A DNA stretch of 16,020 nt, taken from the UHGV virus genome UHGV-0044882; one strand, 5' to 3'. Positions 1,085 through 13,050 of the stretch are shown here, piece by piece. Position numbers and translations under genes: made by a program. This DNA comes from a virus. Position 1 is the first letter of the stretch. Every line of letters begins with the position of its first letter. The notes under the pieces are model-generated. The model saw only the letters and a list, made by a program, of their open reading frames with translations, ran no database searches and was not told where the DNA came from.

Positions 1085-2851
1085 ATGAACACCACACTGA
1101 CACCCGCAGATCTCGATCCCCGTCGGCAGGCCATGCTGCTGTACTTTCAGGGATACCGCGTAGCCCGCATTGCTGAAATGCTGGGCGAGAAAGTTGCAAC
1201 CGTTCACAGCTGGAAAAAACGCGACAAGTGGGGTGACTATGGGCCGCTGGATCAGATGCAGCTCACCACCGCCGCACGCTACTGCCAGCTCATTATGAAG
1301 GAGCACAAAGAAGGGAAAGATTTCAAAGAGATTGACCTGCTGGCGCGCCAGTCGGAGCGCCATGCGCGGATCGGCAAGTTTAACAATGGCGGCAACGAAG
1401 CCGACTTAAACCCTAACGTCGCCAACCGCAACAAAGGCCCGCGCCGTCAGCCGGAAAAGAACGTTTTCACCGATGAACAGATTGAGAAGTTGGAAGAAAT
1501 CTTCCATTCCTCCATGTTCAACTACCAGCGCCACTGGTGGGAAGCCGGAAAAACCAACCGCATCCGCAACCTGCTGAAGTCACGCCAGATCGGCGCGACC
1601 TTCTATTTTGCCCGTGAAGCCCTGATTGACGCCCTGCTAACCGGGCGTAACCAGATTTTCCTTTCCGCCAGCAAGGCTCAGGCCCACGTCTTTAAGCAGT
1701 ACATCATCGACTTCGCCAAAGAAGTGGAGGTGGAGCTGAAAGGCGATCCGATGGTGCTTCCTAACGGGGCCACGCTGTACTTCCTCGGCACCAATGCCCG
1801 CACGGCCCAGAGTTACCACGGCAACCTGTATCTGGATGAATATTTCTGGATACCGAAATTCCAGGAGCTGCGCAAAGTGGCTTCCGGTATGGCTATTCAC
1901 AAAAAATGGCGACAAACCTATTTTTCCACGCCATCCAGCCTGACACACAGTGCTTATCCGTTCTGGTCCGGTGCGCTGTTCAACCGAGGGCGCAACAAAG
2001 CCGATAAGGTGGACATCGACCTGTCCCACAGCAATCTGGCCCCCGGCCTGCTGTGCGCAGACGGGCAGTACCGCCAGATAGTCACTGTGGAAGATGCGGT
2101 GCGCGGCGGCTGTAACCTGTTCGACCTCGACCAGTTGCGCATGGAGTACAGCCCGGACGAATACCAGAACCTGCTGATGTGTGAGTTCGTGGACGATCTC
2201 GCGTCTGTGTTCCCACTCAGCGAGCTGCAGGCGTGCATGGTGGACAGTTGGGAAGTCTGGACCGACTTTCATGCACTGGCCCTGCGCCCGTTTGGCTGGC
2301 GCGAAGTGTGGATCGGATATGACCCGGCGAAAGGTACGCAGAACGGCGACAGCGCCGGATGCGTGGTGGTGGCGCCGCCAGCCGTGCCGGGCGGTAAGTT
2401 CCGCATTCTTGAGCGTCACCAGTGGCGCGGAATGGACTTCCGCGCCCAGGCTGACGCCATCAAAAAACTGACCGAACAGTACAACGTGACCTATATCGGT
2501 ATCGACTCAACCGGCGTTGGTCACGGGGTTTACGAGAACGTGAAAGCGTTTTTTCCTGCCGTCCGGGAGTTTGTCTACAACCCCAACGTTAAAAACGCCC
2601 TGGTACTCAAGGCCTACGACATTATCAGCCACCGCCGTCTGGAGTTTGACGCCGGACACACCGACATAGCGCAGTCCTTTATGGCAATCCGTCGCGCCAC
2701 CACCGCCAGTGGCAACCGCCCGACCTATGAAGCCAGCCGCAGCGAAGAAGCCAGCCACGCCGATCTGGCCTGGGCAACGATGCACGCACTGTTTAACGAA
2801 CCGCTGCAGGGCGAATCCGCCAATACCAGCAATATTGTGGAGATTTTTTGA
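1085..2851 (+). CDS. P: Terminase ATPase (large) subunit gpP
   Basis: 588 aa, matching P2 gpP in length and position (upstream of Q, divergent from O). Stop TGA 2849..2851 overlaps the Q ATG at 2851. Confidence 0.9.
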   Translation: MNTTLTPADLDPRRQAMLLYFQGYRVARIAEMLGEKVATVHSWKKRDKWGDYGPLDQMQLTTAARYCQLIMKEHKEGKDFKEIDLLARQSERHARIGKFNNGGNEADLNPNVANRNKGPRRQPEKNVFTDEQIEKLEEIFHSSMFNYQRHWWEAGKTNRIRNLLKSRQIGATFYFAREALIDALLTGRNQIFLSASKAQAHVFKQYIIDFAKEVEVELKGDPMVLPNGATLYFLGTNARTAQSYHGNLYLDEYFWIPKFQELRKVASGMAIHKKWRQTYFSTPSSLTHSAYPFWSGALFNRGRNKADKVDIDLSHSNLAPGLLCADGQYRQIVTVEDAVRGGCNLFDLDQLRMEYSPDEYQNLLMCEFVDDLASVFPLSELQACMVDSWEVWTDFHALALRPFGWREVWIGYDPAKGTQNGDSAGCVVVAPPAVPGGKFRILERHQWRGMDFRAQADAIKKLTEQYNVTYIGIDSTGVGHGVYENVKAFFPAVREFVYNPNVKNALVLKAYDIISHRRLEFDAGHTDIAQSFMAIRRATTASGNRPTYEASRSEEASHADLAWATMHALFNEPLQGESANTSNIVEIF

Positions 2852-3885
2852 TGGGAAAGAGTAAGAAGAACCGCGCTGCGGCGACGAAACAGATCCAGCT
2901 TAAAAGTCAAACTACAGCCGAAGCATTCAGCTTCGGCGATCCCGTTCCTGTTCTGGACCGCCGAGAACTGCTGGATTATGTGGAATGCGTACAGATGGAC
3001 CGTTGGTATGAGCCGCCCGTCAGCTTTGACGGACTGGCGCGCACCTTCCGCGCCGCCGTGCATCACAGTTCCCCGATTGCAGTAAAGTGCAACATTCTGA
3101 CCAGTACCTATATCCCTCATCCGCTGCTCAGCCAGCAGGCTTTTTCGCGTTTTGTGCAGGACTATCTGGTATTTGGTAACGCCTACCTGGAGAAACGCAC
3201 GAACCGATTCGGTGAAGTTATCGCTCTTGAGCCTGCGCTTGCAAAATACACCCGACGCGGATTAGACCTAGATACCTACTGGTTTGTGCAATACGGTATG
3301 ACAACCCTGCCGTATCAGTTCACGAAAGGCAGCATTTTTCATCTGATGGAACCGGACATCAACCAGGAGATCTACGGCCTGCCCGGTTATCTTTCTGCCA
3401 TTCCGTCAGCCCTGCTCAACGAGTCCGCCACGCTGTTCCGCCGCAAGTATTACATTAACGGTAGCCATGCAGGCTTCATCATGTATATGACCGATGCCGC
3501 GCAGAACCAGGAAGATGTGAACAACCTCCGCAACGCAATGAAAAGCGCCAAAGGCCCTGGCAACTTCCGCAATCTGTTTATGTACTCGCCTAACGGCAAA
3601 AAGGACGGACTTCAGATTATCCCGTTGTCAGAGGTCGCAGCGAAGGATGAGTTTTTGAATATCAAGAACGTGAGTCGGGATGACATGATGGCAGCACATC
3701 GTGTGCCGCCGCAAATGATGGGGATTATGCCGAGTAATGTTGGGGGGTTTGGGGATGTGGAGAAAGCCAGCCGCGTCTTTGTTCGCAACGAGTTGATACC
3801 TCTGCAGAAGCGCCTTCAGGAATTGAACGACTGGCTTGGAGAAGAAGTCATGCGTTTTGAAGATTATAATTTAGGTATTGAATGA
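2851..3885 (+). CDS. Q: Portal (capsid portal vertex) protein gpQ
   Basis: 344 aa from ATG 2851 (the track's first M is TTG at 2848), the same length as P2 gpQ. Translationally coupled to P (TGATG). Confidence 0.88.
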   Translation: MGKSKKNRAAATKQIQLKSQTTAEAFSFGDPVPVLDRRELLDYVECVQMDRWYEPPVSFDGLARTFRAAVHHSSPIAVKCNILTSTYIPHPLLSQQAFSRFVQDYLVFGNAYLEKRTNRFGEVIALEPALAKYTRRGLDLDTYWFVQYGMTTLPYQFTKGSIFHLMEPDINQEIYGLPGYLSAIPSALLNESATLFRRKYYINGSHAGFIMYMTDAAQNQEDVNNLRNAMKSAKGPGNFRNLFMYSPNGKKDGLQIIPLSEVAAKDEFLNIKNVSRDDMMAAHRVPPQMMGIMPSNVGGFGDVEKASRVFVRNELIPLQKRLQELNDWLGEEVMRFEDYNLGIE

Positions 3886-3890
3886 AATTT

Positions 3891-3917
3891 AAAAGCCTGT
3901 ACAAACAGGCTTTTATT
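3891..3917. terminator. Bidirectional rho-independent terminator between convergent Q and the three-gene operon
   Basis: Stem aaagcctgt / acaggcttt with loop acaa, flanked by an A-run on one side and ttttatt on the other. Seen directly in sequence. Confidence 0.55.
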
Positions 3918-3954
3918 CTTTAGTTTAAAATCACCAAGACATGAGCATTAAAAC

Positions 3955-4620
3955 TTAAAGATCCGGATCTACAGGCTCATGATATAGATTTACAGGGTAA
4001 TGAATAACTTCATAATTCAGTTGAGTAACTGTGTGAACATGCTGGCTATAAAAAACCAATGGATTTTTTTGACAAGGAGTAATCGTTATAGATTTACAGG
4101 CATGAATTCTTGGTGCGAATTTATCTAAATGCGCCTTCCAGTTGCTCATCATTTCATTACATTTTCTATTACGAGTATAGATAATCAATCCACCACTTGC
4201 GCTGTCTACGGTCCCTGTACTATATCGTTCAGTGAGTTGAGCATACCCTTTAAATAAATAACTATATGAAGATGTATGTTTTTTGGCTTCGCCATGCCAA
4301 ATATAATCCTTTAGTTTTATTGTAATATCACAATGTCCGCGCTGATTATTTTCATGAAATGCTTCAATGCCCATATCTTTATTTTTGATATTGGCCAATA
4401 AAATTAAAGTAAGCTGATCTTCTGTTAAATCGAAGTTTAACTTATTTGAATTCTCTTCTATTTCCTTTACAGCAGAATCAAGTTCAATCCTGACAAATTG
4501 TTTGAAATTATCGTACGATTGAAGTGCAAATCTAACACGAGTAATAGAAGCATTAATACGCTGAAGAAAAATATCATTATCAATATCAGCCAAACTCATT
4601 GCTGCAGACATTTTTAACAT
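3955..4620 (-). CDS. Hypothetical protein, third gene of the AT-rich operon; weak PD-(D/E)xK-like nuclease motif
   Basis: 221 aa, ATG 4620..4618 overlapping the stop of the upstream gene (ATGA), stop TAA 3957..3955. Segment GHCDITIKLKDYIWHGEAKKH has a D then E-x-K spacing compatible with a PD-(D/E)xK core; this is inference by eye, not a domain hit. Confidence 0.6.
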   Translation of the reverse strand: MLKMSAAMSLADIDNDIFLQRINASITRVRFALQSYDNFKQFVRIELDSAVKEIEENSNKLNFDLTEDQLTLILLANIKNKDMGIEAFHENNQRGHCDITIKLKDYIWHGEAKKHTSSYSYLFKGYAQLTERYSTGTVDSASGGLIIYTRNRKCNEMMSNWKAHLDKFAPRIHACKSITITPCQKNPLVFYSQHVHTVTQLNYEVIHYPVNLYHEPVDPDL

Positions 4621-5054
4621 CAGATAATATCCTTTGATTTAGATTCATCTAATGTAAAAAAAGGAAATACGAATGACTTATAGTCATACATAAGCTCCCC
4701 TGTAAATGGGTTTGCTAAAGATTGACTGATTTCCGCCTCAATAACTTCCTCTATTTCAAGTTCTACAGGGTCATGAAAATCATCAATGAACCAATAATTG
4801 AGTTTTAAAAAATCAACCTTTGGGCTACAAAGAATTTGTATGGCCGGATAGATAACCTGCTCATACGTTTCTGGCTGTAAAACCTTATTATAACCACCAG
4901 CTATATTAAATAAATCCTTATAACTTAAGGCTATATTTGATGATTTTTTAGCCCTTGCCTCGATTTCATCGTACAAATAGCAAGCTAACGCCCCAATTTC
5001 AGGGCGTTCTGCACACATTTCTTTGATGATCTTGGGCATATCACCATCCTTCAT
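4620..5054 (-). CDS. Hypothetical small acidic protein, middle gene of the AT-rich operon
   Basis: 144 aa from ATG 5054..5052 (track lists a TTG start at 5066). GGAG 7 nt upstream. Stop TGA overlaps the start of the downstream gene at 4620. No recognisable motif. Confidence 0.55.
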   Translation of the reverse strand: MKDGDMPKIIKEMCAERPEIGALACYLYDEIEARAKKSSNIALSYKDLFNIAGGYNKVLQPETYEQVIYPAIQILCSPKVDFLKLNYWFIDDFHDPVELEIEEVIEAEISQSLANPFTGELMYDYKSFVFPFFTLDESKSKDII

Positions 5055-5066
5055 TGCTGACTCCAA

Positions 5067-6173
5067 TTATAATATCAGCTTTGTGAGGGTTTCGAAATCA
5101 TCTTTGGATATACATTTACTTAATATAGCATAGTTAACAGGAGAGCAACTACTCCCTCCTAGATGCCTGCGGAGTGTTCCCGGAATGATAAGCTCTACGT
5201 TATCCGCTAATTGCAGTTTTGGATTATTTCTATCAACTCTAATTCCAATACGATACAAACCAATACTGCCTACTGCTTTGATGCCTTCCTTATTAAACAA
5301 ATCATCACGTAAGTCTTTAGTGGCCACATTTTTCTTTTCTTTATGCGTAGTCCCCTCATTCGTCAAAAATGACAAATCAAAGACTTTATAGCTTAATTTT
5401 GAATAAGGCAATGAATTTTGTTTGAAAATTAGCTCAATTAACGGATAAAAATCTTTTTCCGATGATTTAAATTCATAACCGACATGATTATACAATTCAC
5501 GAATAATGTTACTCTTTGCAAAAGTAACATTATCACCAATAATATTACCATTAGTATCTACCAAAACATGAATTTTATTAGTAACAGAGTCTAATATACA
5601 GACATCAAAACATTGTCGCTTTTCTTTTCGCTTTGCAATAATTTCATCAAACTGCTTGTATTGCGCAAGTGCTGACGGGGGAATTTTTTCTCTTACAACT
5701 AATTCTCTGACAGATGAAAAAACAAGTATTGACTGGGTGTTTTGAATAGAATAATTAACAAGTTCAGGTTGATTTTTTACAGCATTTTGCAATTGGACAT
5801 CATCAAGGATCGAATCAACCAATAATGATGGTTGATTCATCAAATTCCATTGAAAACTAAATCTGTCATTTAGTGTTTTAATTACACTATTATCTACAGT
5901 CAAACTAAATATTGCTTTTTCACCATAAACGACCTGACCAAAAATTAGGTCATTTACGTTTGCCATAATGCCATCAAACTTTTGCCTATCTTTACTTTTA
6001 AGATCAATGAGGCTTTCTAGTATTTTTTCGTTTGTTGCTTCACGCCCCCTACCTGTTGGCAGCCCTAAAGACGCAATAATTGGCCTTGCAACGTTCCATG
6101 TGAAACGTTCAGTTAAGGTCAAGATCGACTTTAACTCAGACTCAGAAAGCACTACTGGGACACTACCTGTCAT
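5067..6173 (-). CDS. Hypothetical protein, first and largest gene of the AT-rich operon
   Basis: 368 aa from ATG 6173..6171 (track lists GTG at 6182), AGGTG 7 nt upstream, stop TAA 5069..5067. No Walker A, HExxH or nucleotidyltransferase motif found by eye. Confidence 0.62.
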   Translation of the reverse strand: MTGSVPVVLSESELKSILTLTERFTWNVARPIIASLGLPTGRGREATNEKILESLIDLKSKDRQKFDGIMANVNDLIFGQVVYGEKAIFSLTVDNSVIKTLNDRFSFQWNLMNQPSLLVDSILDDVQLQNAVKNQPELVNYSIQNTQSILVFSSVRELVVREKIPPSALAQYKQFDEIIAKRKEKRQCFDVCILDSVTNKIHVLVDTNGNIIGDNVTFAKSNIIRELYNHVGYEFKSSEKDFYPLIELIFKQNSLPYSKLSYKVFDLSFLTNEGTTHKEKKNVATKDLRDDLFNKEGIKAVGSIGLYRIGIRVDRNNPKLQLADNVELIIPGTLRRHLGGSSCSPVNYAILSKCISKDDFETLTKLIL

Positions 6174-6322
6174 AACTTGCACCTAGTCATCCAAAAAGCA
6201 ATAAGAATTTGCTCTTGTCTTAATTTATCCTTCGATACCTAACAAATTACCTCAATGTTGAAAAAATTTGCAAGCCATTTGCTTCTAAAAAGCGACCTTA
6301 CTCAGAGTGTTACAAAACTAAG

Positions 6323-6351
6323 CGAGCGCGCGCTCGTATCCCCGCCACGCC
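6323..6351 (-). other. Candidate cos (cohesive end) site with adjacent GC palindrome
   Basis: Reverse complement of 6333..6351 is GGCGTGGCGGGGATACGAG. Its first 13 nt match the 186 cohesive end as I recall it (GGCGTGGCGGGGAAAGCAT); 14 of 19 match P2 (GGCGAGGCGGGGAAAGCAC). The G-rich strand is the one expected downstream of Q. A 14-bp palindrome cgagcgcgcgctcg sits at 6323..6336. Confidence 0.45.
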
Positions 6352-6372
6352 TGCCCGCTTTGTGTAGTGGTT

Positions 6373-6476
6373 TTCATGCAGGTGCATGACATAAGCAAAA
6401 GCCCGCCAGAACTGGCGGGCCTGCATCAAAACGATCCTCAAACGATCATGCGTTCTCATGCAGCATAGTCATGCAC
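6373..6476. repeat. Cluster of short iterated motifs beside the cos-like site
   Basis: TCATGCA(G/C) at 6374..6381, 6456..6463 and 6469..6476, plus an inverted copy at 6383..6390 forming a dyad with the first. AAACGATC direct repeat at 6429..6436 and 6440..6447. Confidence 0.4.
6396..6420 (-). terminator. Rho-independent terminator, minus strand
   Basis: Stem gcccgccag / ctggcgggc (6401..6420). On the minus strand it is followed by TTTTGCTTAT. Confidence 0.45.
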
Positions 6477-6699: not shown

Positions 6700-7692
6700 T
6701 TACTCAACGGTCACAACTATTTTGCCGACCTGTCCATTGGACTCCATATAGCGCTGGGCGTCTGCAATCTCTTCGAACGGGAACGTCTTATCGATGACCG
6801 GCTTCAGTTTGCCGACTCGCAAGCCTTCTGTGATAAAGGATTTAGCGCGCGCCATTTTTTCAGAGTCCGTCGTGATTTCAAACAGCTCATATCCACGCAG
6901 GGTGAGATGCTTACCGAGAATATCAAATACAGGCACAAGCATGTCACGGCTATCGAGCGCGCCGTACTGGAAAAACATACCCTGTGGTGCCATCACCTGC
7001 GTCAGTTTTGCCACGTCCGGCCCACCGACGGGATCAAAAACAATATGGGCACCTGCGCCATCTGTTGCACGACTGATTTCAGCAACCATATCCTGCTCCG
7101 CAGTAGCAATGACGGCGGCTGCGCCAGCTTTAAGGAGCATTTCGCTTTTTTCAGAGGTCCGTGTGAGTGCAATTGGGTTTGCACCCAGCATGTTAGCAAT
7201 CTGTATGGCAGCCAGACCCACGCTGCTTGATGCTGCGCGGATCACGACATTCTGACCAGCCTGAAGGTTGCCATACTCAACCAGCGCACCATAAGCGGTG
7301 ACATACATCATCCAGCTTGCGGCGGCTTCCTCGAATGAAAGGTTTTCAGGATGCTTTACGACAGCATGAACCGGTGCGTTGACCACTTCACCATACATGC
7401 CGTATTCATTAAACATAAATGAAGGGATCACGCTTACCCGATCTCCAGTGGTAAACTCATCTACATTCTCACCTACTGCCTGTACAACGCCGGCCGCTTC
7501 ATAACCAAGACGTGCCGGAAATTCCGGCTCAATAACATATTGGCCGTTGCGGTACATGATTTCTGCACGGTTGATACCTATCGCATGTACGCGGATCTGC
7601 ACTTCACCCGCTGTCGGTGCAGGCACCTGCACATCAACAACTTCCAGCACTTCCGGGCCACCGGTGCGGTTAAAGGTAATAACTTTAGACAT
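6700..7692 (-). CDS. MDR-superfamily NAD(P)H:quinone oxidoreductase-like (zinc-type alcohol dehydrogenase family)
   Basis: 330 aa from ATG 7692 (track TTG at 7698). N-terminus MSKVITFNRTGGPEVLEVVDV and a Gly-rich nucleotide-binding stretch AASSSVGLAAIQ resemble E. coli Qor-type quinone reductases. Confidence 0.85.
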   Translation of the reverse strand: MSKVITFNRTGGPEVLEVVDVQVPAPTAGEVQIRVHAIGINRAEIMYRNGQYVIEPEFPARLGYEAAGVVQAVGENVDEFTTGDRVSVIPSFMFNEYGMYGEVVNAPVHAVVKHPENLSFEEAAASWMMYVTAYGALVEYGNLQAGQNVVIRAASSSVGLAAIQIANMLGANPIALTRTSEKSEMLLKAGAAAVIATAEQDMVAEISRATDGAGAHIVFDPVGGPDVAKLTQVMAPQGMFFQYGALDSRDMLVPVFDILGKHLTLRGYELFEITTDSEKMARAKSFITEGLRVGKLKPVIDKTFPFEEIADAQRYMESNGQVGKIVVTVE

Positions 7693-7841
7693 ATTCAACT
7701 CTCTTCAGTTAAAGGCACACCTTCAGAATAATGCCGAAGGGATGCCCGAATCATTTGTGAACAATCTACGTTGTTACGAACACACCAGAAATAGCTGAGA
7801 GGGAACTTCAGTATTAATTATCCATTAACAATCCGCCTGCT

Positions 7842-8744
7842 TCAGCGGATCTGCGTGGCCAGAATATCACTGAACCAGTCGATAAAGACGCGCACTTTTG
7901 GAGAAAGGTAGCGCCTGTCGGGATACATCACTGACACGGGCTTTGACACCGATGGGTATTGCGGCAGAATCTCTTCAAGAGCGCCGGAAGCAATATGGGG
8001 AGCAACGGCATCATAGGTAGCCTGGATAATGCCCAGACCAGCCAGAGCACAAGAAAGCAGAATATCGGAATTATCAACCAGCAGGCTGCCCGCAGGACGT
8101 AGCGAAACAATGCTCCCGTCTTCGATAAACTTCCATTCCATGACGTCACGACTGTGGTCGCTAAAAAAGTTAATTGCCCGATGTTTATCCAGATCCGCAA
8201 GTGTTTCTGGCCGCTCATGCTGCTGCAGGTAAGACGGGGCTGCACAGGTAACCATCCGGATGTCACCAAGACGTCTGGATATAAAACTAGAATCTTGAAG
8301 CGCCCCCAGGCGGACAAGGCAATCTACGCCTTCCGTAATCAAATCAGTTTTTTTATCGGAAGAAACCAGCACAACTTCAATACCTGGATACAGTGCCTGA
8401 AAATGCCTGAGATTAGGGATCAATATGGAATGCGCCAGCGCCAGGGGCACATCAAGTCTCAGGCGTCCTCGCGGTGGAAGTGTCGGTGAAAAACTGGCCA
8501 TCATGTCATTAACTTCGGCCAGAACATGCCTAGCATGATGATAGAACTCATCCCCTTCAGCAGTAACGCTCAGCTTTCGGGTTGTGCGATAAATGAGTTT
8601 TACACCCAGATCATGCTCTATCTGCTGTATCGCTTTGCTCACAGTGGGGCGATGAATCTGAAGTACATCAGCAGCTTTCGTGAAGCTACCCTGCTCAACA
8701 ACCTGTATGAAAATATTTAGGTATTCAATCATGTTGGCATGCAC
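7842..8744 (-). CDS. LysR-family transcriptional regulator (LTTR)
   Basis: About 300 aa. N-terminal HTH signature VVEQGSFTKAADVL..PTVSKAIQQIEHDLGVKLIYRTTRKLSVTAEG followed by a co-inducer domain. Start is GTG 8744 (AGGTGA 5 nt upstream) or ATG 8732. Confidence 0.85.
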   Translation of the reverse strand: MHANMIEYLNIFIQVVEQGSFTKAADVLQIHRPTVSKAIQQIEHDLGVKLIYRTTRKLSVTAEGDEFYHHARHVLAEVNDMMASFSPTLPPRGRLRLDVPLALAHSILIPNLRHFQALYPGIEVVLVSSDKKTDLITEGVDCLVRLGALQDSSFISRRLGDIRMVTCAAPSYLQQHERPETLADLDKHRAINFFSDHSRDVMEWKFIEDGSIVSLRPAGSLLVDNSDILLSCALAGLGIIQATYDAVAPHIASGALEEILPQYPSVSKPVSVMYPDRRYLSPKVRVFIDWFSDILATQIR

Positions 8745-8966
8745 GTGCTCACCTGTTTTGTAGGCTGTTCAAAACCGACATTGTAAAGTAAACCATCCCA
8801 ACGACATTATTTCTTTTCGTTCAGATAAGGGCTTTCTGACTGTCACAATGTCCACTTCTGGCACAAAGCGGACGACCATTTTCAAATGGCCGTCGCATCT
8901 AACACCTCGTTTCACTCATTGTTCAACCTTACCCCCATCAGAAGGAATTCTTTCGGGGGCAACGTT

Positions 8967-9200
8967 TCAGTGTAACCAGCTGTCGTCTTCCCAGACCTGC
9001 TGCAGAATTTCCATTACACGTTCCTTATCTTCAGCCTGTCTTACCCCGCTAAGTTCAATACCATTGGCGCTGCCCTTGCGGATTCGGATAGCTGTTTTTG
9101 GGTAGAGGGGGCGCAAATTTCGGTAAAGCTCGGATTCAAGTGCTTCTAAAAGCACCTGGCTAATTTTCTGCTCTTTATCGATCATTATTTCAATGCGCAT
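8967..9200 (-). CDS. DinI-family protein
   Basis: 77 aa from ATG 9200 (MRIEIMIDK..). Aligns by eye with E. coli DinI along its length, including the C-terminal EILQQVWEDDSW versus DinI EILQETWESADDW. SD AGGGGA upstream. The track ORF extends to 9245, but the internal ATG fits the family. Confidence 0.8.
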   Translation of the reverse strand: MRIEIMIDKEQKISQVLLEALESELYRNLRPLYPKTAIRIRKGSANGIELSGVRQAEDKERVMEILQQVWEDDSWLH

Positions 9201-9210
9201 AGATTTTCCC

Positions 9211-9399
9211 CTAACAGGTAACGTCCATTGTTCGGCTGTATTCATGGTTGCGGATTTTCGCCATCAGCTCGTCAGTCAGCTCGGAAACCCACTGGATGGC
9301 CAGCCCCTTCTCTTCATCACTACACTCACTAGCCGCTACAAGCTTAAGAAAAAAATCAATGCGCTGGAGCTTCAAAGACTCCAAAAAATAGTCCTGCAT
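9211..9399 (-). CDS. Small SOS-regulated protein; possible Tum-like antirepressor N-terminal module
   Basis: 62 aa, ATG 9399..9397 with strong SD AGGAGG 5 nt upstream. Lies directly downstream of a LexA operator; stop TAG is 10 nt before the DinI-like ATG. Function inferred from position only. Confidence 0.5.
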   Translation of the reverse strand: MQDYFLESLKLQRIDFFLKLVAASECSDEEKGLAIQWVSELTDELMAKIRNHEYSRTMDVTC

Positions 9400-9425
9400 C
9401 TTTCCTCCTATGACACCAAAACAAT

Positions 9426-9459
9426 ACTGTATATATAATCACTGTTTATATTTACAGTA
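9426..9459. promoter_or_regulatory. LexA operator (SOS box): one perfect box plus an overlapping imperfect box
   Basis: 9442..9457 ctgtttatatttacag is a perfect CTGT-N8-ACAG. 9426..9445 tactgtatatataatcactg matches the left half of the consensus, with the right half CAC instead of CAG. Confidence 0.7.
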
Positions 9460-9482
9460 TATAATAATCTTACTGATGTAAA
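9456..9482 (-). promoter_or_regulatory. Candidate sigma70 promoter of the SOS operon, overlapped by the LexA box
   Basis: Minus strand: -35 TTTACA (9482..9477), 15-nt spacer, -10 TATACT (9461..9456), with the -10 overlapping the CTGT of the perfect LexA box. Spacer is short, so the assignment is approximate. Confidence 0.4.
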
Positions 9483-9551
9483 ACGTTTTTTTACGTTCAT
9501 CAGCCTGATATGCCTGGTATTATTAAGAGCACGAATTGTTAACCCGCGTAA

Positions 9552-11972
9552 TTAATACAGCTCCCGCCACTTATCATCTTCCTGCAAACGCTGGTTCCGA
9601 TAGAAGATACGCAGGCCTGCTCCTGACGGAATACTGCCGCCGCAAAGGAGTAAATCGACTTCTTTCTCGCTGCCATCAAATCCTCTGGACTTCAGTTCAT
9701 AGACGAGCTGCTGTCGCTGATGGTCTGTAATTCGCTGTTTGTAGTCTTTACGCCGTTTCGGTTTCACCTGGCGTAACCTTGCAGCCAGTTCCCGGCGCTC
9801 TTTTTTGCTCATACTGTGCAGGTAATCGTGCAACTCCTTGTCATCCATGCGGGTAATGTCCGTTCTGGTATCCCCATCAGCTGATTTGTCGTTCCCTTGT
9901 TGGCTCAAATTTTCAGCAAGGGGACAGTTATTGCCACGAGTCCGAGTCCAAGGGGCGCAAGCGCCCTGGTCGGCTGCCGCCTCCTGAACGTCAACGGCCT
10001 TACGAACCATTTTCCACTTCACGGCATGAGTGCAGATCTTGCCCTCTGCAATAGGTGACCAGATGCCATAAATACGAATGCCGTGATCGCCATAGACGGT
10101 CGGCTCTTCGTTGATTTCATAAGCAGTTCTGATGAGGTGATATTTGCGGGGAACCAGTACGCCACCCTGCTTCATGATGTAGGTGGCAAAACAACCAGCA
10201 TCAGCAGCAGCCAGAATGGCATCAAGGCGCGGGTTATCCAGTACCGGCGCACCTGCTTTTTTGTCCCCCTGTTGCCTTGCCGCCTGACCAGCCAGCAATC
10301 GCAGTTCACGGTAAGCCTGACGCCCCGGAATGCCAAAGAAGCGGAATTGCTGAACACGATGCAGAGACGCCCAGGCATTAACGTATTCAGCATTCTCACG
10401 CAGGGATTTCCCCGTTTCCTTGCTGATCTCGCCAGCCAGACCACGCCCGTCAATGTTCTTACTGATGTATTTCGCGATGTAGCTTGTTGGCGTACCTTTG
10501 CGCGGGTTAATCAACTCAGACTTAAAGCGCGGCCCAGTGTTATTGCCCAGCTCCTCGCGGTCTTCACGGATGGCAAACTTACGCAGTAATGCAGTGATGG
10601 TGCGGCGGTCTTTTTTGCGCATAAAACACAACAGGTGCCAGTGAACTGTACCGTCATGATGCGGCTCAGCCACCCGCACGCCATACCACCGCAATCCGGC
10701 TTTGTGCATCGCCTTACGAAATGCAGCAAACATGCCGACCAGATAATCACTGCTTTGTCTTACCGTCGCATTTGTCCAGGTTGGGTTGGGCCTGCCGTTA
10801 TTTAGCGTGGAATGGAAACGTGACGGACAGGTGATGGTGTAGAAAACGGCGCAGTCACCGCGCATTTCCGCGATAAGCTCCAGACCTTTAACACAGGCCA
10901 TCATCTCATTGCGGCGATGCGCCGGGTTGCTGCTGCTGGCGTTTACCACATCCTCCATGTCCAGCGTGTCGCCCTCTTCGTTCACCAGTTCATGAGAACG
11001 GAAAAACTCCAGCGACTTACGGCGCTGCTCACGTTTATGCATCACGGCTTCATAGCTGACATAAGGAGATGCTTTTTTGCTGACAAGGCAGACTGCACGC
11101 AACTGCTCTTCCCGCCATTCGCAACGCATCTTCCATAATTTCCGATACCACCAATCGGCGCACAACATACGCGCCAGCGAACCCGGAATGAGTTCATAGG
11201 GCACGGGTTTACGGCGGTTTCTTTTCCGACGGAGTTGCTCAAACGCAGGCGGGATGACATCCAGACGCAGGGTTTCCGCTGCCACCCTTTCCCATGTATT
11301 GCGGATTTCTTCTGGCTTAACGTCATCGGTGGCATACAAATCGCCACAAGCGGCATCAAGGCACATACTCATATGCGCAGCTACCAGGGTGGACAGGCGT
11401 TTCACCTGATCCTGACTCATTTCAGGCAGGATCAGCAGGCCGTCCAGCCCTTCATGGCTTGCCATAAAGCGAAAAGATGCAGATAGCTGACTGTCGCGTA
11501 CATGCTCCAGTCGTTCCAGACATGGCTTAATCGTCTCACGTAAATAGCGGGAATAAGCCTTTGGCCTGCCCAGGCTGCTGAAGTATTCAATACGTTGCAT
11601 CAGCGGCTTGCTGATATGGGAAGGCTGGGCGTTGACGTCCGCCAGAATGACCATATCCGGATTAAAACGCTGCTGCTCATGCGCCAGCTTTGCCCGACTA
11701 ATGAGCTTATCCTGTTCCATTTCGCGCTGGACAGGATCACGGGATTCATTAAAGAAATAACGCTCCCAGACCTGATCACTCAGCGCCTCACGGCGCAGCT
11801 GTTCCTGCTCGTTATCGGCAGCGTACAGAGTGATCAGGTTTGAAAGCGTAGAAACCGGCGCAACTTCCACCGGGTCCAGATAAGGGTTAATGGCCTTTTT
11901 CGGGCTGTTCCATGAGAACGATGCGGCAGCTTCGTTAAAGCCGCAGCAGTTGTTCATATCGGCATGACTCAT
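9552..11972 (-). CDS. A: Replication initiation protein gpA (rolling-circle nicking endonuclease)
   Basis: 806 aa at the position of P2/186 gene A. Contains a paired-tyrosine segment YIAKYISKN of the kind found in gpA-type initiators. ATG 11972 overlaps the Dam stop. Confidence 0.85.
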
Positions 11973-12826
11973 GCACGTACTCCGTACACGGCAGAACTAT
12001 CCACGCCACGCGAATAATCAAATCCCACCCAGCAGCGCGGCCCGGAAACAGCAATGATTTCTGTTGCTGATTTACCCTCGCCAGCTGCCACACCGATGCT
12101 GCGTTTTGCCTTGATGTAGTGGTGAGTAAAATTGCGATACAGCGAACGGATCAGGGATGTGTCACTGTTAGAAACAATGACCGGATGTCCTTCTGATGAC
12201 CGATGTTCAAGAACAGATGCCAGGTGATACTGGTCATCTTCAGTGAAGCCGTCAGTGTGATAGCCGGAAAACGTACCGTCATACGGCGGATCGCAATACA
12301 CCACATCCCCCGCCTTCAACATCGCCAGCGTTTCATCAAAGCTGGCGCAGATAAACGTTGCTCGCTGGGCCTTTTCTGCAAATGCGCGAATTTCTTTTTC
12401 AGGGAAATACGGATTTTTATAATTACCGTAGGGAATGTTGAAATGCCCGCTCTTGTTATAGCGACATAAACCACGGTAACCGTGACGATTGAGATACAGG
12501 AAATATACCGCTTTCATGAAATCAGTAATTTCAGTGGAGTAATTAAACTCCTGCCTTATGTTGTAATAAGCCACCTCCCTGTTTGCGATCTCAAATAAAA
12601 CTCTGGCGCGAGATATAAACGATTCACAATCAGCGGCAACCTTTTTATAGAGGTTTATTAAATCAGGATTAATATCCGCAACCAGATAGCTGGGGTAATC
12701 CGTCTCCATCATCACAGCACAGGAACCCGCGAAAGGTTCAACCAGTCGCGGGCCAGCAGGAAGGTGTTTTTTCAGTTCGGACATAATGGCGGTTTTATTT
12801 CCCGCCCATTTCAGGATGGTGCTCAT
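11969..12826 (-). CDS. dam: Dam-type DNA N6-adenine methyltransferase (orphan)
   Basis: 285 aa from ATG 12826 (the track ORF starts 20 codons upstream). Motifs [16 protein letters not shown] (AdoMet site), [15 protein letters not shown] and catalytic DPPY align with E. coli Dam as recalled. GGAGGTG SD upstream. Confidence 0.9.
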
Positions 12827-13050
12827 ACAGCACCTCCGTTGTAATGTTTGCCTTTCAGCTCTGCGATTTCCTGGCAGGTAATGCAAAGATGCACTCCCGG
12901 AATGGCGCGGCGTCGTGCTGGCGGAATTGGCGCTTCACATTCAATACAAAGCACGCGAGACACGCCCGGTGTTTTGGCACGGGCAGCACGAATATGGCGC
13001 TGGCGTTCTTCTTCAACGCGCTGCTGTACGAGATCCATTGCATCAGCCAT
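12823..13050 (-). CDS. TraR/DksA-family C4-type zinc-finger protein
   Basis: 75 aa with CIECEAPIP and CITCQ (CxxC-N17-CxxC), typical of phage and plasmid TraR-like proteins. Stop overlaps the Dam ATG; start overlaps the stop of the upstream ORF. Confidence 0.75.
   Translation of the reverse strand: MADAMDLVQQRVEEERQRHIRAARAKTPGVSRVLCIECEAPIPPARRRAIPGVHLCITCQEIAELKGKHYNGGAV

Follow-up and report, generated by a model that had tools for sequence, protein, structure and literature searches.

A candidate anti-phage cassette of P2-like prophages with a predicted restriction-endonuclease-fold nuclease as its putative effector

Introduction

Several described defence systems have a nuclease as effector, among them HamA of Hachiman, NucC and Cap4 of the cyclic-oligonucleotide-based anti-phage signalling system (CBASS), Can2 and Card1 of type III CRISPR, SduA of Shedu, and McrC, and in this group the nuclease is found with a helicase, a cyclic-nucleotide sensor domain or the McrB GTPase. 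Here we describe an operon of three genes, A, B and C, in the virus genome UHGV-0044882, of which a stretch of 16,020 nucleotides (the window) was analysed at its full length. The third gene, C, is predicted with good confidence to encode a DNA nuclease of restriction-enzyme (BamHI/BglII-like) fold. In contrast to the effectors above, C is accompanied by an RdgC-like protein (A) and by a small acidic putative adaptor (B). Judging from sequence comparisons, A-B-C appears to be a widespread, unnamed and horizontally mobile cassette with C as its output gene, and we think it probable that this cassette is an anti-phage system in which C would cleave DNA once its partner has been engaged by a phage cue.

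The solved structures closest to the model of C are those of Type II restriction endonucleases of the BamHI class (OkrAI, BamHI, BstYI and BglII). The likeness does not extend to sequence (identity is only 6–9%, with no sequence-level relationship), and C differs from these enzymes in having an extra N-terminal helical hairpin and in being always paired with B and a partner protein. Moreover, no cognate methyltransferase gene adjoins C in the window or at any of the 121 other loci listed in our survey, so that C does not have the setting of a Type II restriction-modification enzyme. Profiles of nuclease effector families such as HamA/DUF1837, Shedu/DUF4263, Cap4, NucC, Mrr and NERD (Pfam and PADLOC) did not match C or any of 82 diverse relatives. 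(A match to LmuA in one relative, at E 0.005, was set aside as chance.)

For those relatives of the operon in which B is fused to a Type I or Type ISP restriction enzyme, there is an analogy to be drawn with PrrC and PARIS, in that a latent nuclease may be coupled to the restriction enzyme. PrrC is a latent nuclease coupled to the restriction enzyme EcoprrI, and it fires when a phage disables restriction. PARIS has been described as a guard of restriction systems (PMC9122126). The analogy would hold for the B-fused variants only, and it does not reflect descent; PrrC (an anticodon nuclease) and AriB (a Toprim nuclease), with their ABC-type ATPase parts, show no homology to B-C.

The site occupied by the operon is a hotspot of P2-like prophages described by Rousset et al. 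in 2022, in whose Table S5B the proteins of the operon are entered for the P2 hotspot as system 91, which occurs 36 times and has no Pfam domain (PMC9122126). Another operon from the same hotspot, the 'hp + hp + hp' system of E. coli E1114, was validated against P1 in that study (PMC9122126). It likewise consists of three domain-less genes and has the same flanking cos block, whereas its proteins are of ~345, 355 and 225 residues, compared to 371, 148 and 221 for A, B and C. The possibility that our operon is 'hp + hp + hp' (Rst_3HP) was ruled out, as BLASTP gave nothing better than E 0.4 and the hidden Markov models (HMMs) of A, B and C found no match. Within PADLOC, the nearest entry is PDC-S54 (model PDLC05036), an unvalidated single-gene candidate that is matched by 22 of the 82 diverse C-family members (best E 1.4e-10); a sub-clade of the C family has thus already been flagged as a defence candidate. 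The C protein of the window did not match PDC-S54 at E ≤ 1, and A and B have no PADLOC counterpart; from its sequence, this C looks like a member of the PDC-S54 superfamily in a clade that has not been modelled.

Nuclease effectors of hotspot operons are familiar. The pairing of an RdgC-like partner with a portable acidic adaptor, the latter also carried by restriction enzymes, a TIR protein and EF-Tu, is not described in the openly accessible literature that we searched; this literature held no mention of the RefSeq accessions of the operon's proteins or of PDC-S54, and nothing relevant on RdgC-like defence proteins, integrated decoys or EF-Tu. Nor is the operon described in KELShedu or in the hotspot and modularity papers of 2025–2026.

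Results

C has the predicted fold and the conserved residues of a PD-(D/E)xK nuclease

The initial annotation of the window proposed that the third gene of the operon carries a PD-(D/E)xK nuclease core, and this proposal is supported by residue conservation together with the predicted fold. The AlphaFold2 model of C (mean predicted local distance difference test score (pLDDT) 89.9, predicted template modelling score (pTM) 0.85) consists of an N-terminal two-helix hairpin (residues 10–56) followed by a nuclease core (residues 67–211). In particular, there are helices at residues 10–32, 36–56, 67–76, 120–133 and 154–172, strands at residues 85–88, 99–103, 106–115 and 142–149, and three further strands. 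The topology of the core, alpha-beta-beta-beta-alpha-beta, is the canonical one for PD-(D/E)xK, and as in other members of that superfamily there is a conserved aspartate (D98) at the start of strand 2 and a conserved (D/E)-x-K motif (E111 and K113) on strand 3.

Structure comparison, which the initial annotation had suggested as a check, placed restriction enzymes closest to C and did not return an unrelated fold. The top scores were those of OkrAI (9.5), BamHI (9.2), BstYI (8.6) and BglII (8.3), followed by the DNase toxin CdiA-CT EC869 (7.5), McrC (7.1) and HamA of Hachiman (6.6); lower in the list were Can2, NucC, SfsA, Cas4, SduA and many more Type II enzymes. At the level of sequence, a C profile gave no significant match to any solved structure in the PDB, Pfam gave no match in C or its 82 diverse relatives, and NCBIfam gave none in the C of the window. 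(Sub-threshold matches to Rep3_C, on C, and to DUF7628, on A, were regarded as noise.) Judged by its model, C appears to be a new, unnamed clade of the PD-(D/E)xK superfamily, with the BamHI-class enzymes as its closest relatives in predicted structure.

None of the residues D98, E111 and K113 varies among 36 close relatives, which come from Enterobacterales together with one distant metagenomic sequence. An exhaustive profile search extended the family to 568 representative clusters at E ≤ 1e-3 (445 at E ≤ 1e-10), the clusters being drawn at 50% identity, and conservation was measured in 133 representatives with at most 50% mutual identity. Seven residues are conserved in all 133 (E67, G95, D98, E111, K113, G125 and Y133), Q128 and R132 in 99%, W108 and H207 in 98%, and A112 in 92%, giving the family signature ED..T / GGHxD / W[LI][GA]EAK[IK] / G[FY]xQLxxRY. 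Mean pairwise identity across the family is only 28–32%. The invariance of the catalytic residues across these representatives argues that C is an active enzyme.

The by-eye reading on which the initial annotation was built can be judged against the model and the alignment. D98 does stand at the start of a predicted strand, directly before the strand at residues 99–103 (AlphaFold2/DSSP), and E111-A-K113 does follow on the next strand, at residues 106–115, with the trivial correction that the spacing between D98 and E111 is 13 rather than 14. The upstream acidic residue of the segment that was quoted, however, is not the most likely one to contribute to catalysis: position 86 lacks conservation, and position 90 (E90) is aspartate or glutamate in only 88% of the representatives. 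The first acidic residue of the active site is likely to be the invariant E67 on the preceding helix. The annotation had also cautioned that such a pattern is weak evidence, and rightly so. D-x(8-25)-[DE]-x-K turns up in 75% of shuffled versions of C, and most of the window's other proteins have it as well, so the bare D...ExK pattern is no evidence by itself and was rejected as a stand-alone argument.

C is the proposed output gene of a mobile three-gene cassette

To survey the cassette we used a degenerate DNA pattern for W-x-[GA]-E-A-K...G-x-x-Q-x-x-x-R-Y on one-genome-per-species contigs, with our own open reading frame (ORF) calls and iterated HMMs. The pattern found at least 120 stretches, and all 120 of those listed encode true C-family members; the taxa of the matches listed include Alpha-, Beta- and Gammaproteobacteria, Cyanobacteria and Bacteroidales. 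Among the 121 loci of the matches listed, 78 have the order A (~357 residues), B (~138 residues) and C (~210 residues), nine have B-C only (mostly cut by the edge of the locus), six have A and C with a gap the size of B between them, and at four C is fused to a larger protein. When only those listed loci are counted in which the sequence upstream of C is 1.7 kb or longer, A-B-C is present at 65 of 91 (71%). The genes are tightly spaced, as the gap is at most 10 nucleotides for A-B in 90%, and for B-C in 100%, of 69 complete triplets, with a mode of −4. Moreover, the pairwise-identity matrices of A, B and C correlate with one another (r = 0.79–0.82), although part of this correlation may reflect shared phylogeny.

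Of 126 flanking genes, 8 encode integrases, more than any other family, and the others are unrelated housekeeping genes; such a setting is what one expects of small mobile islets. In Providencia manganoxydans (GCA_041095215.1; L004:6431-8666) a P4-like satellite carries the cassette, with a Toprim primase gene on one side and psu/delta homologues on the other. A recent study reports that defence genes are almost never common to P2 and P4 (PMC13586616); the A-B-C family may be an exception to this, and one that holds across genera. Other phage carriers are Klebsiella phage KP12 and phages of Acinetobacter and Moraxella, and seven Stx1a-converting phages carry A-B-C between the late antiterminator gene Q and stx1AB, as in Stx1_499 (LC567825.1; L125:2975-5082), where the three proteins are of 350, 130 and 221 residues. 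(This is a moron position adjoining the Shiga toxin genes.) The cassette was also found on 27 IMG/VR contigs and on 16 plasmid records, one of which is the K. pneumoniae plasmid pRGF99-1-6115bp (NZ_CP075557.1; L126:36-2186), where A-B-C makes up about a third of 6.1 kb. (This plasmid is Col-type and mobilizable, and it has a RelE/ParE toxin-antitoxin pair beside A-B-C.)

Members of the C family also occur as domains of larger proteins. Some NACHT or NB-ARC proteins, which also have HEAT or TPR repeats, end in a C domain, and further fusions join this domain to a HEAT-only protein or a Peptidase_S24 domain (the fusion loci include L012, L060 and L092). The initial annotation reasoned that, if the nuclease core held, C would be the effector, with the two upstream genes as sensor or regulator; the role of C as effector gains support from its fusions to NACHT/NB-ARC proteins and from the PADLOC defence-candidate matches among its relatives. 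(In the 356-residue protein P0216, the Peptidase_S24 domain is of the LexA type and lies N-terminal to the nuclease domain of the C family. This arrangement hints that some C relatives might be released or controlled by RecA-stimulated self-cleavage.)

The B domain is carried by restriction enzymes and by paralogs of translation proteins

B is acidic (isoelectric point (pI) 4.4) and has a conserved motif, L-x-[HN]-P-x-T-G. It is otherwise poorly conserved, with a mean column identity of 23% and only P120 and G123 nearly invariant, and the B family gave no database match, PADLOC and PDB-sequence profile searches included. Family scans found no enzymatic signature in either A or B.

With an HMM built from standalone B proteins only, we found a full-length B domain at the extreme C-terminus of proteins encoded directly upstream of C. 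There are 13 loci, of the 121 among the matches listed, at which B is fused in this manner to a large protein that is followed by C. Seven of the carriers are Type ISP restriction-modification enzymes (L043, L050, L059, L083, L091, L098 and L118), which also hold helicase, coupler, methylase and Type_ISP_C domains, and of which that of L098 retains its own Mrr-type nuclease; two others are Type I HsdR subunits (L017 and L034). These Type ISP and HsdR carriers come from unrelated bacteria, and the C gene follows them, mostly with a 4-nucleotide overlap. Further carriers are a TIR_2 protein (E 1e-40) and a FeeM-like acyltransferase.

In two cases the carrier is a paralog of a translation protein. 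In Litoreibacter roseus (NZ_BLJE01000007.1; L042:4575-6293, plus strand) a full-length EF-Tu paralog with intact GTPase G motifs ends in a B domain (residues 439–568, E 2e-21), and C follows at L042:6259-6924; the locus looks like one in which a translation factor serves as bait or decoy in an immune locus. (The upstream neighbour of this gene has an N-terminal sequence that, read by eye without a family scan, is MORC-type ATPase-like.) On a 3.3-kb contig of Nioella sp. (L062:743-1804, minus strand) a paralog of ribosomal protein S3 (KH_2 + S3_C) has a C-terminal extension of ~100 residues with a weak match to B (E 7e-5), and the C gene lies 14 nucleotides downstream. From gene order and these fusions, we propose that B is an adaptor or inhibitor that would couple C to its partner.

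A resembles RdgC in predicted fold

A has a pI of 8.5, and its AlphaFold2 model (pLDDT 86.3, pTM 0.84) shows an RdgC-like fold behind an N-terminal four-helix region. In an independent Foldseek search with this model the top places went to RdgC of P. aeruginosa and of E. coli (probability 1.0, E 4e-6 to 2e-5), followed by the RdgC-like kinetochore proteins CENP-N and CENP-L. RdgC is a recombination-associated DNA-binding ring protein, a toroidal dimer on dsDNA, to which A is likened by predicted fold alone; A differs from it in the extra four-helix region and shares no sequence similarity with it. When 69 diverse members of the A family were scanned there was no match to Pfam (RdgC included), PADLOC or PDB sequences, and an NCBIfam scan of the A of the window gave no match. 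On the basis of the model, A is proposed to be a DNA-binding sensor or partner.

The operon is variable cargo of a P2 prophage hotspot

Pfam matches and ORF calls identify the left part of the window as the packaging end of a P2-like prophage (Table 1). The operon is tightly packed, is convergent with the portal gene, and has a 1-nucleotide overlap between the stop codon of B and the start codon of C (TGATG); the start variants of B in Table 1 also occur among RefSeq and other database entries. The G+C content of the operon block is 34%, compared to 55% in the prophage genes to its left, which is a signature of acquired cargo. The hairpin between the portal gene and C is likely to be a bidirectional terminator shared by the two genes (10 terminator-like sites were found where 1.7 were expected). 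A scan of the leader for a sigma-70 promoter did not rise above shuffled sequence and gave no convincing consensus.

Beyond the leader is an element that we take to be cos, on the basis of the P2 and P4 cos sequence. This conserved block recurs in records of P2-like phages. The same block is also present within the cloned P2-hotspot sequences of Rousset 2022, Table S2A (PMC9122126). On the far side follow, in order, a quinone-oxidoreductase/LysR pair, a DinI-like region, the gene of the replication endonuclease gpA, and the gene of a Dam methylase.

Table 1. Positions of the operon, of the predicted active-site residues of C, and of neighbouring features in the window
Feature	Position	Strand	Remarks
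P2-type large terminase	1085-2851	+	Pfam Terminase_5/6N/6C; RefSeq annotation of a near-identical locus
Portal gene (Q)	2848-3885	+	Pfam Phage_portal; RefSeq annotation of a near-identical locus
Terminase and portal genes	1085-3885	+	Conserved left border of the hotspot
Palindromic hairpin	3890-3915	.	Perfect 11-bp stem; between portal stop (3885) and C stop (3955)
Gene C	3955-4620	-	221-residue ORF with ATG start; third in the operon
Q128-L-T-E-R132-Y133 codons	4222-4239	-	QLxxRY motif, on the helix after strand 3 (residues 120-133)
Segment EAFHENNQRGHCDITIKLKDYIWHGEAKKH	4276-4365	-	C residues 86-115: strand 1 (85-88), G95-H96-x-D98 turn, strand 2 (99-103), strand 3
E111-A112-K113 codons	4282-4290	-	(D/E)xK motif, on strand 3
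D98 codon	4327-4329	-	Predicted metal-binding aspartate, start of strand 2
E67 codon	4420-4422	-	Invariant acidic residue, start of helix 67-76
Gene B	4620-5066	-	148 residues from TTG; 144 or 139 residues from ATG 5054 or 5039
Gene A	5067-6182	-	371 residues from GTG 6182; more likely 368 from ATG 6173
Leader, putative promoter region of the operon	6183-6332	-	Between the cos-like element and gene A
cos-like core GGCGTGGCGGGGATACGAG of the P2-like prophage	6333-6351	-	Brackets the operon together with portal gene Q
Dam-family methylase of the prophage	11969-12886		

Of 5426 complete E. coli genomes, 21 have the operon (at least 80% of the query covered), whereas 1245 have partial matches to the stretch that was queried, which comprised the operon and the adjacent cos-side sequence. 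In nine of the ten top-listed complete genomes the operon is 99.6–99.7% identical to that of the window. Strain 2022CK-00450 has it in a near-identical P2-like prophage, flanked by the portal gene and the DarT/macro (DarTG) genes, and strain KFu019 has an 85%-identical variant in the same place with different neighbours. The location is thus that expected of a defence system: a P2 portal/cos hotspot with variable neighbours and variable presence, in a family also carried by P4-like satellites, Stx1 phages and plasmids. (E. coli MS 115-1 (NZ_CP146665.1) has the operon at 99.6% identity to positions 3886-6400 of the window. This strain is the source of a well-studied CBASS system with the NucC nuclease, so that the native locus is already available in a laboratory strain.)

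Two observations concern the region beyond cos. The pair at 6700-8744 (minus strand), between cos and the DinI/gpA region, consists of a PIG3-like zinc-dependent quinone oxidoreductase and a YafC/AaeR-like LysR regulator; in a near-identical E. coli prophage DarTG holds this position, the pair is found in only three complete E. coli genomes, and none of the complete genomes reproduces the arrangement of the window. The DinI-like region next to gpA (8848-9500) is ~83% identical to its E. coli counterparts, as against 99.7% for the A-B-C operon, which suggests either that P2-like prophages, though diverged elsewhere, have recently exchanged the cassette or that the window has a source other than E. 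coli.

Discussion

The mechanism that we propose for A-B-C as an anti-phage system is as follows. C would be a metal-dependent DNA nuclease with an active site made up of E67, D98, E111 and K113, supported by Q128, R132 and Y133, and it would be held latent in a complex through the small acidic B. B would dock C onto a partner, either in trans or by fusion, and this partner, which in the window would be A, would serve as the input. The trigger might be phage DNA, replication or recombination intermediates, or else the binding of a phage protein to the partner; upon such a cue C would be released or activated and would cut DNA, so that the infecting phage is stopped and the cell possibly killed. 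The outcome would be classed as interference or abortive infection. As a base rate for such proposals, six of eight randomly chosen P4-hotspot loci of unknown function protected against phages (PMC13586616).

A more specific form of this proposal is that B is a portable docking or guard domain that tethers the latent BamHI-fold nuclease C to interchangeable baits, in the manner of modular guard or integrated-decoy immunity. We entertain this idea tentatively. It is prompted by the B fusions, whose carriers include restriction enzymes as well as paralogs of translation proteins that are known phage targets, and it would extend the logic of PrrC and PARIS by way of one small adaptor. The baits would be the RdgC-like A (the common form), Type I and Type ISP enzymes, the EF-Tu paralog, the S3 paralog, the TIR protein and the acyltransferase, and the nuclease would fire when an anti-restriction protein, an enzyme that modifies EF-Tu or the ribosome, or a phage recombination intermediate engages the bait.

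Several points weigh against reading A-B-C as an anti-phage system with this mechanism. The template modelling scores (TM-scores) of A against RdgC are low (0.33–0.39), with no support from sequence, so that only the fold class is supported, and DNA binding by A is a guess. The AlphaFold2 models were built on shallow alignments of 36 sequences, the structural matches of C are at 6–9% identity with moderate Z, and it is the topology that suggests a spatial clustering of E67, D98, E111 and K113. Contact between B and C is suggested solely by gene order and fusions, and the fusions to EF-Tu, S3, TIR and FeeM are single observations, that to S3 with a weak match (E 7e-5). The mobile-island signal among flanking genes is modest (8 integrases of 126), and A, B and C of the window match no model in PADLOC, Pfam or NCBIfam. 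Lastly, the sequences of the operon are absent from all tables of tested systems in Rousset 2022 (PMC9122126), and Moura de Sousa et al. 2026 include the operon neither among the systems that they tested nor among those that they named as new (PMC13586616).

An alternative that we regard as unlikely is that B-C is a toxin-antitoxin or addiction module that stabilises mobile elements, with C as the nuclease toxin, B as the antitoxin, and A as an accessory or regulator. B is indeed a small and acidic protein (pI 4.4) that evolves fast, its gene adjoins and overlaps that of C, with which it is translationally coupled and co-varies, and the cassette is found on many kinds of mobile element, one of them a 6.1-kb plasmid of which it makes up a third beside a RelE/ParE system. 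However, such a module does not account for the retention of the 357-residue A with B and C at 71% of the listed loci with enough upstream sequence, and the operon lies within a dedicated defence hotspot; the fusions of B to restriction enzymes, TIR and EF-Tu, and of C to NACHT, are moreover typical of immune systems. (Note that roles in addiction and in defence are not mutually exclusive.) It is quite improbable, too, that the operon serves the DNA metabolism of the prophage, as an RdgC-like recombination modulator acting with a structure-specific nuclease (a resolvase or end processor), or in degrading host DNA or excluding superinfecting phages during lytic growth. The RdgC-like fold of A is what such a reading would build on, but the operon behaves as variable cargo (21 of 5426 complete E. 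coli genomes, against 1245 with partial matches), its G+C content is foreign, DarTG and other systems are swapped in at the same site, and the same cassette occurs on plasmids and on chromosomal islets without phage genes. In addition, the best structural matches of C are restriction enzymes and not resolvases.

That the closest solved structures are BamHI-class enzymes, and that the prophage also has a gene for a Dam-family methylase, would fit an orphan, sequence-specific Type II endonuclease (BamHI/BglII class) against which an unlinked methylase such as Dam protects. We consider this very unlikely, given that none of the ~120 listed loci has an adjacent methyltransferase gene, the neighbours being B and A or a B-fused partner, and that the Type ISP and Type I partners of C already carry a nuclease and a methylase of their own. 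Dam, for its part, is a core gene of the P2-like lineage, in the same gene order with the replication endonuclease in both reference prophages. Finally, C might be a pseudo-enzyme that has kept the restriction-endonuclease fold for DNA binding or scaffolding while another component is the effector. Catalytically dead PD-(D/E)xK domains do exist, but this explanation is hard to credit for C, whose canonical catalytic residues are 100% conserved despite a mean pairwise identity of 28–32%, and neither A nor B has an enzymatic signature.

If A-B-C is confirmed to be an anti-phage system, then a widespread and so far unnamed one would be added to those described, with a nuclease family of 568 clusters across several bacterial phyla, and a function would be assigned to a cassette that has already been catalogued in the P2 hotspot. 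Its carriers would include medically relevant elements, namely P2-like prophages, P4-like satellites, Stx1-converting phages and small Col plasmids. The B adaptor would offer a testable model for how a suicide or backup nuclease can be bolted onto proteins that phages attack, and the natural B-fusion variants a set with which this docking model may be dissected.

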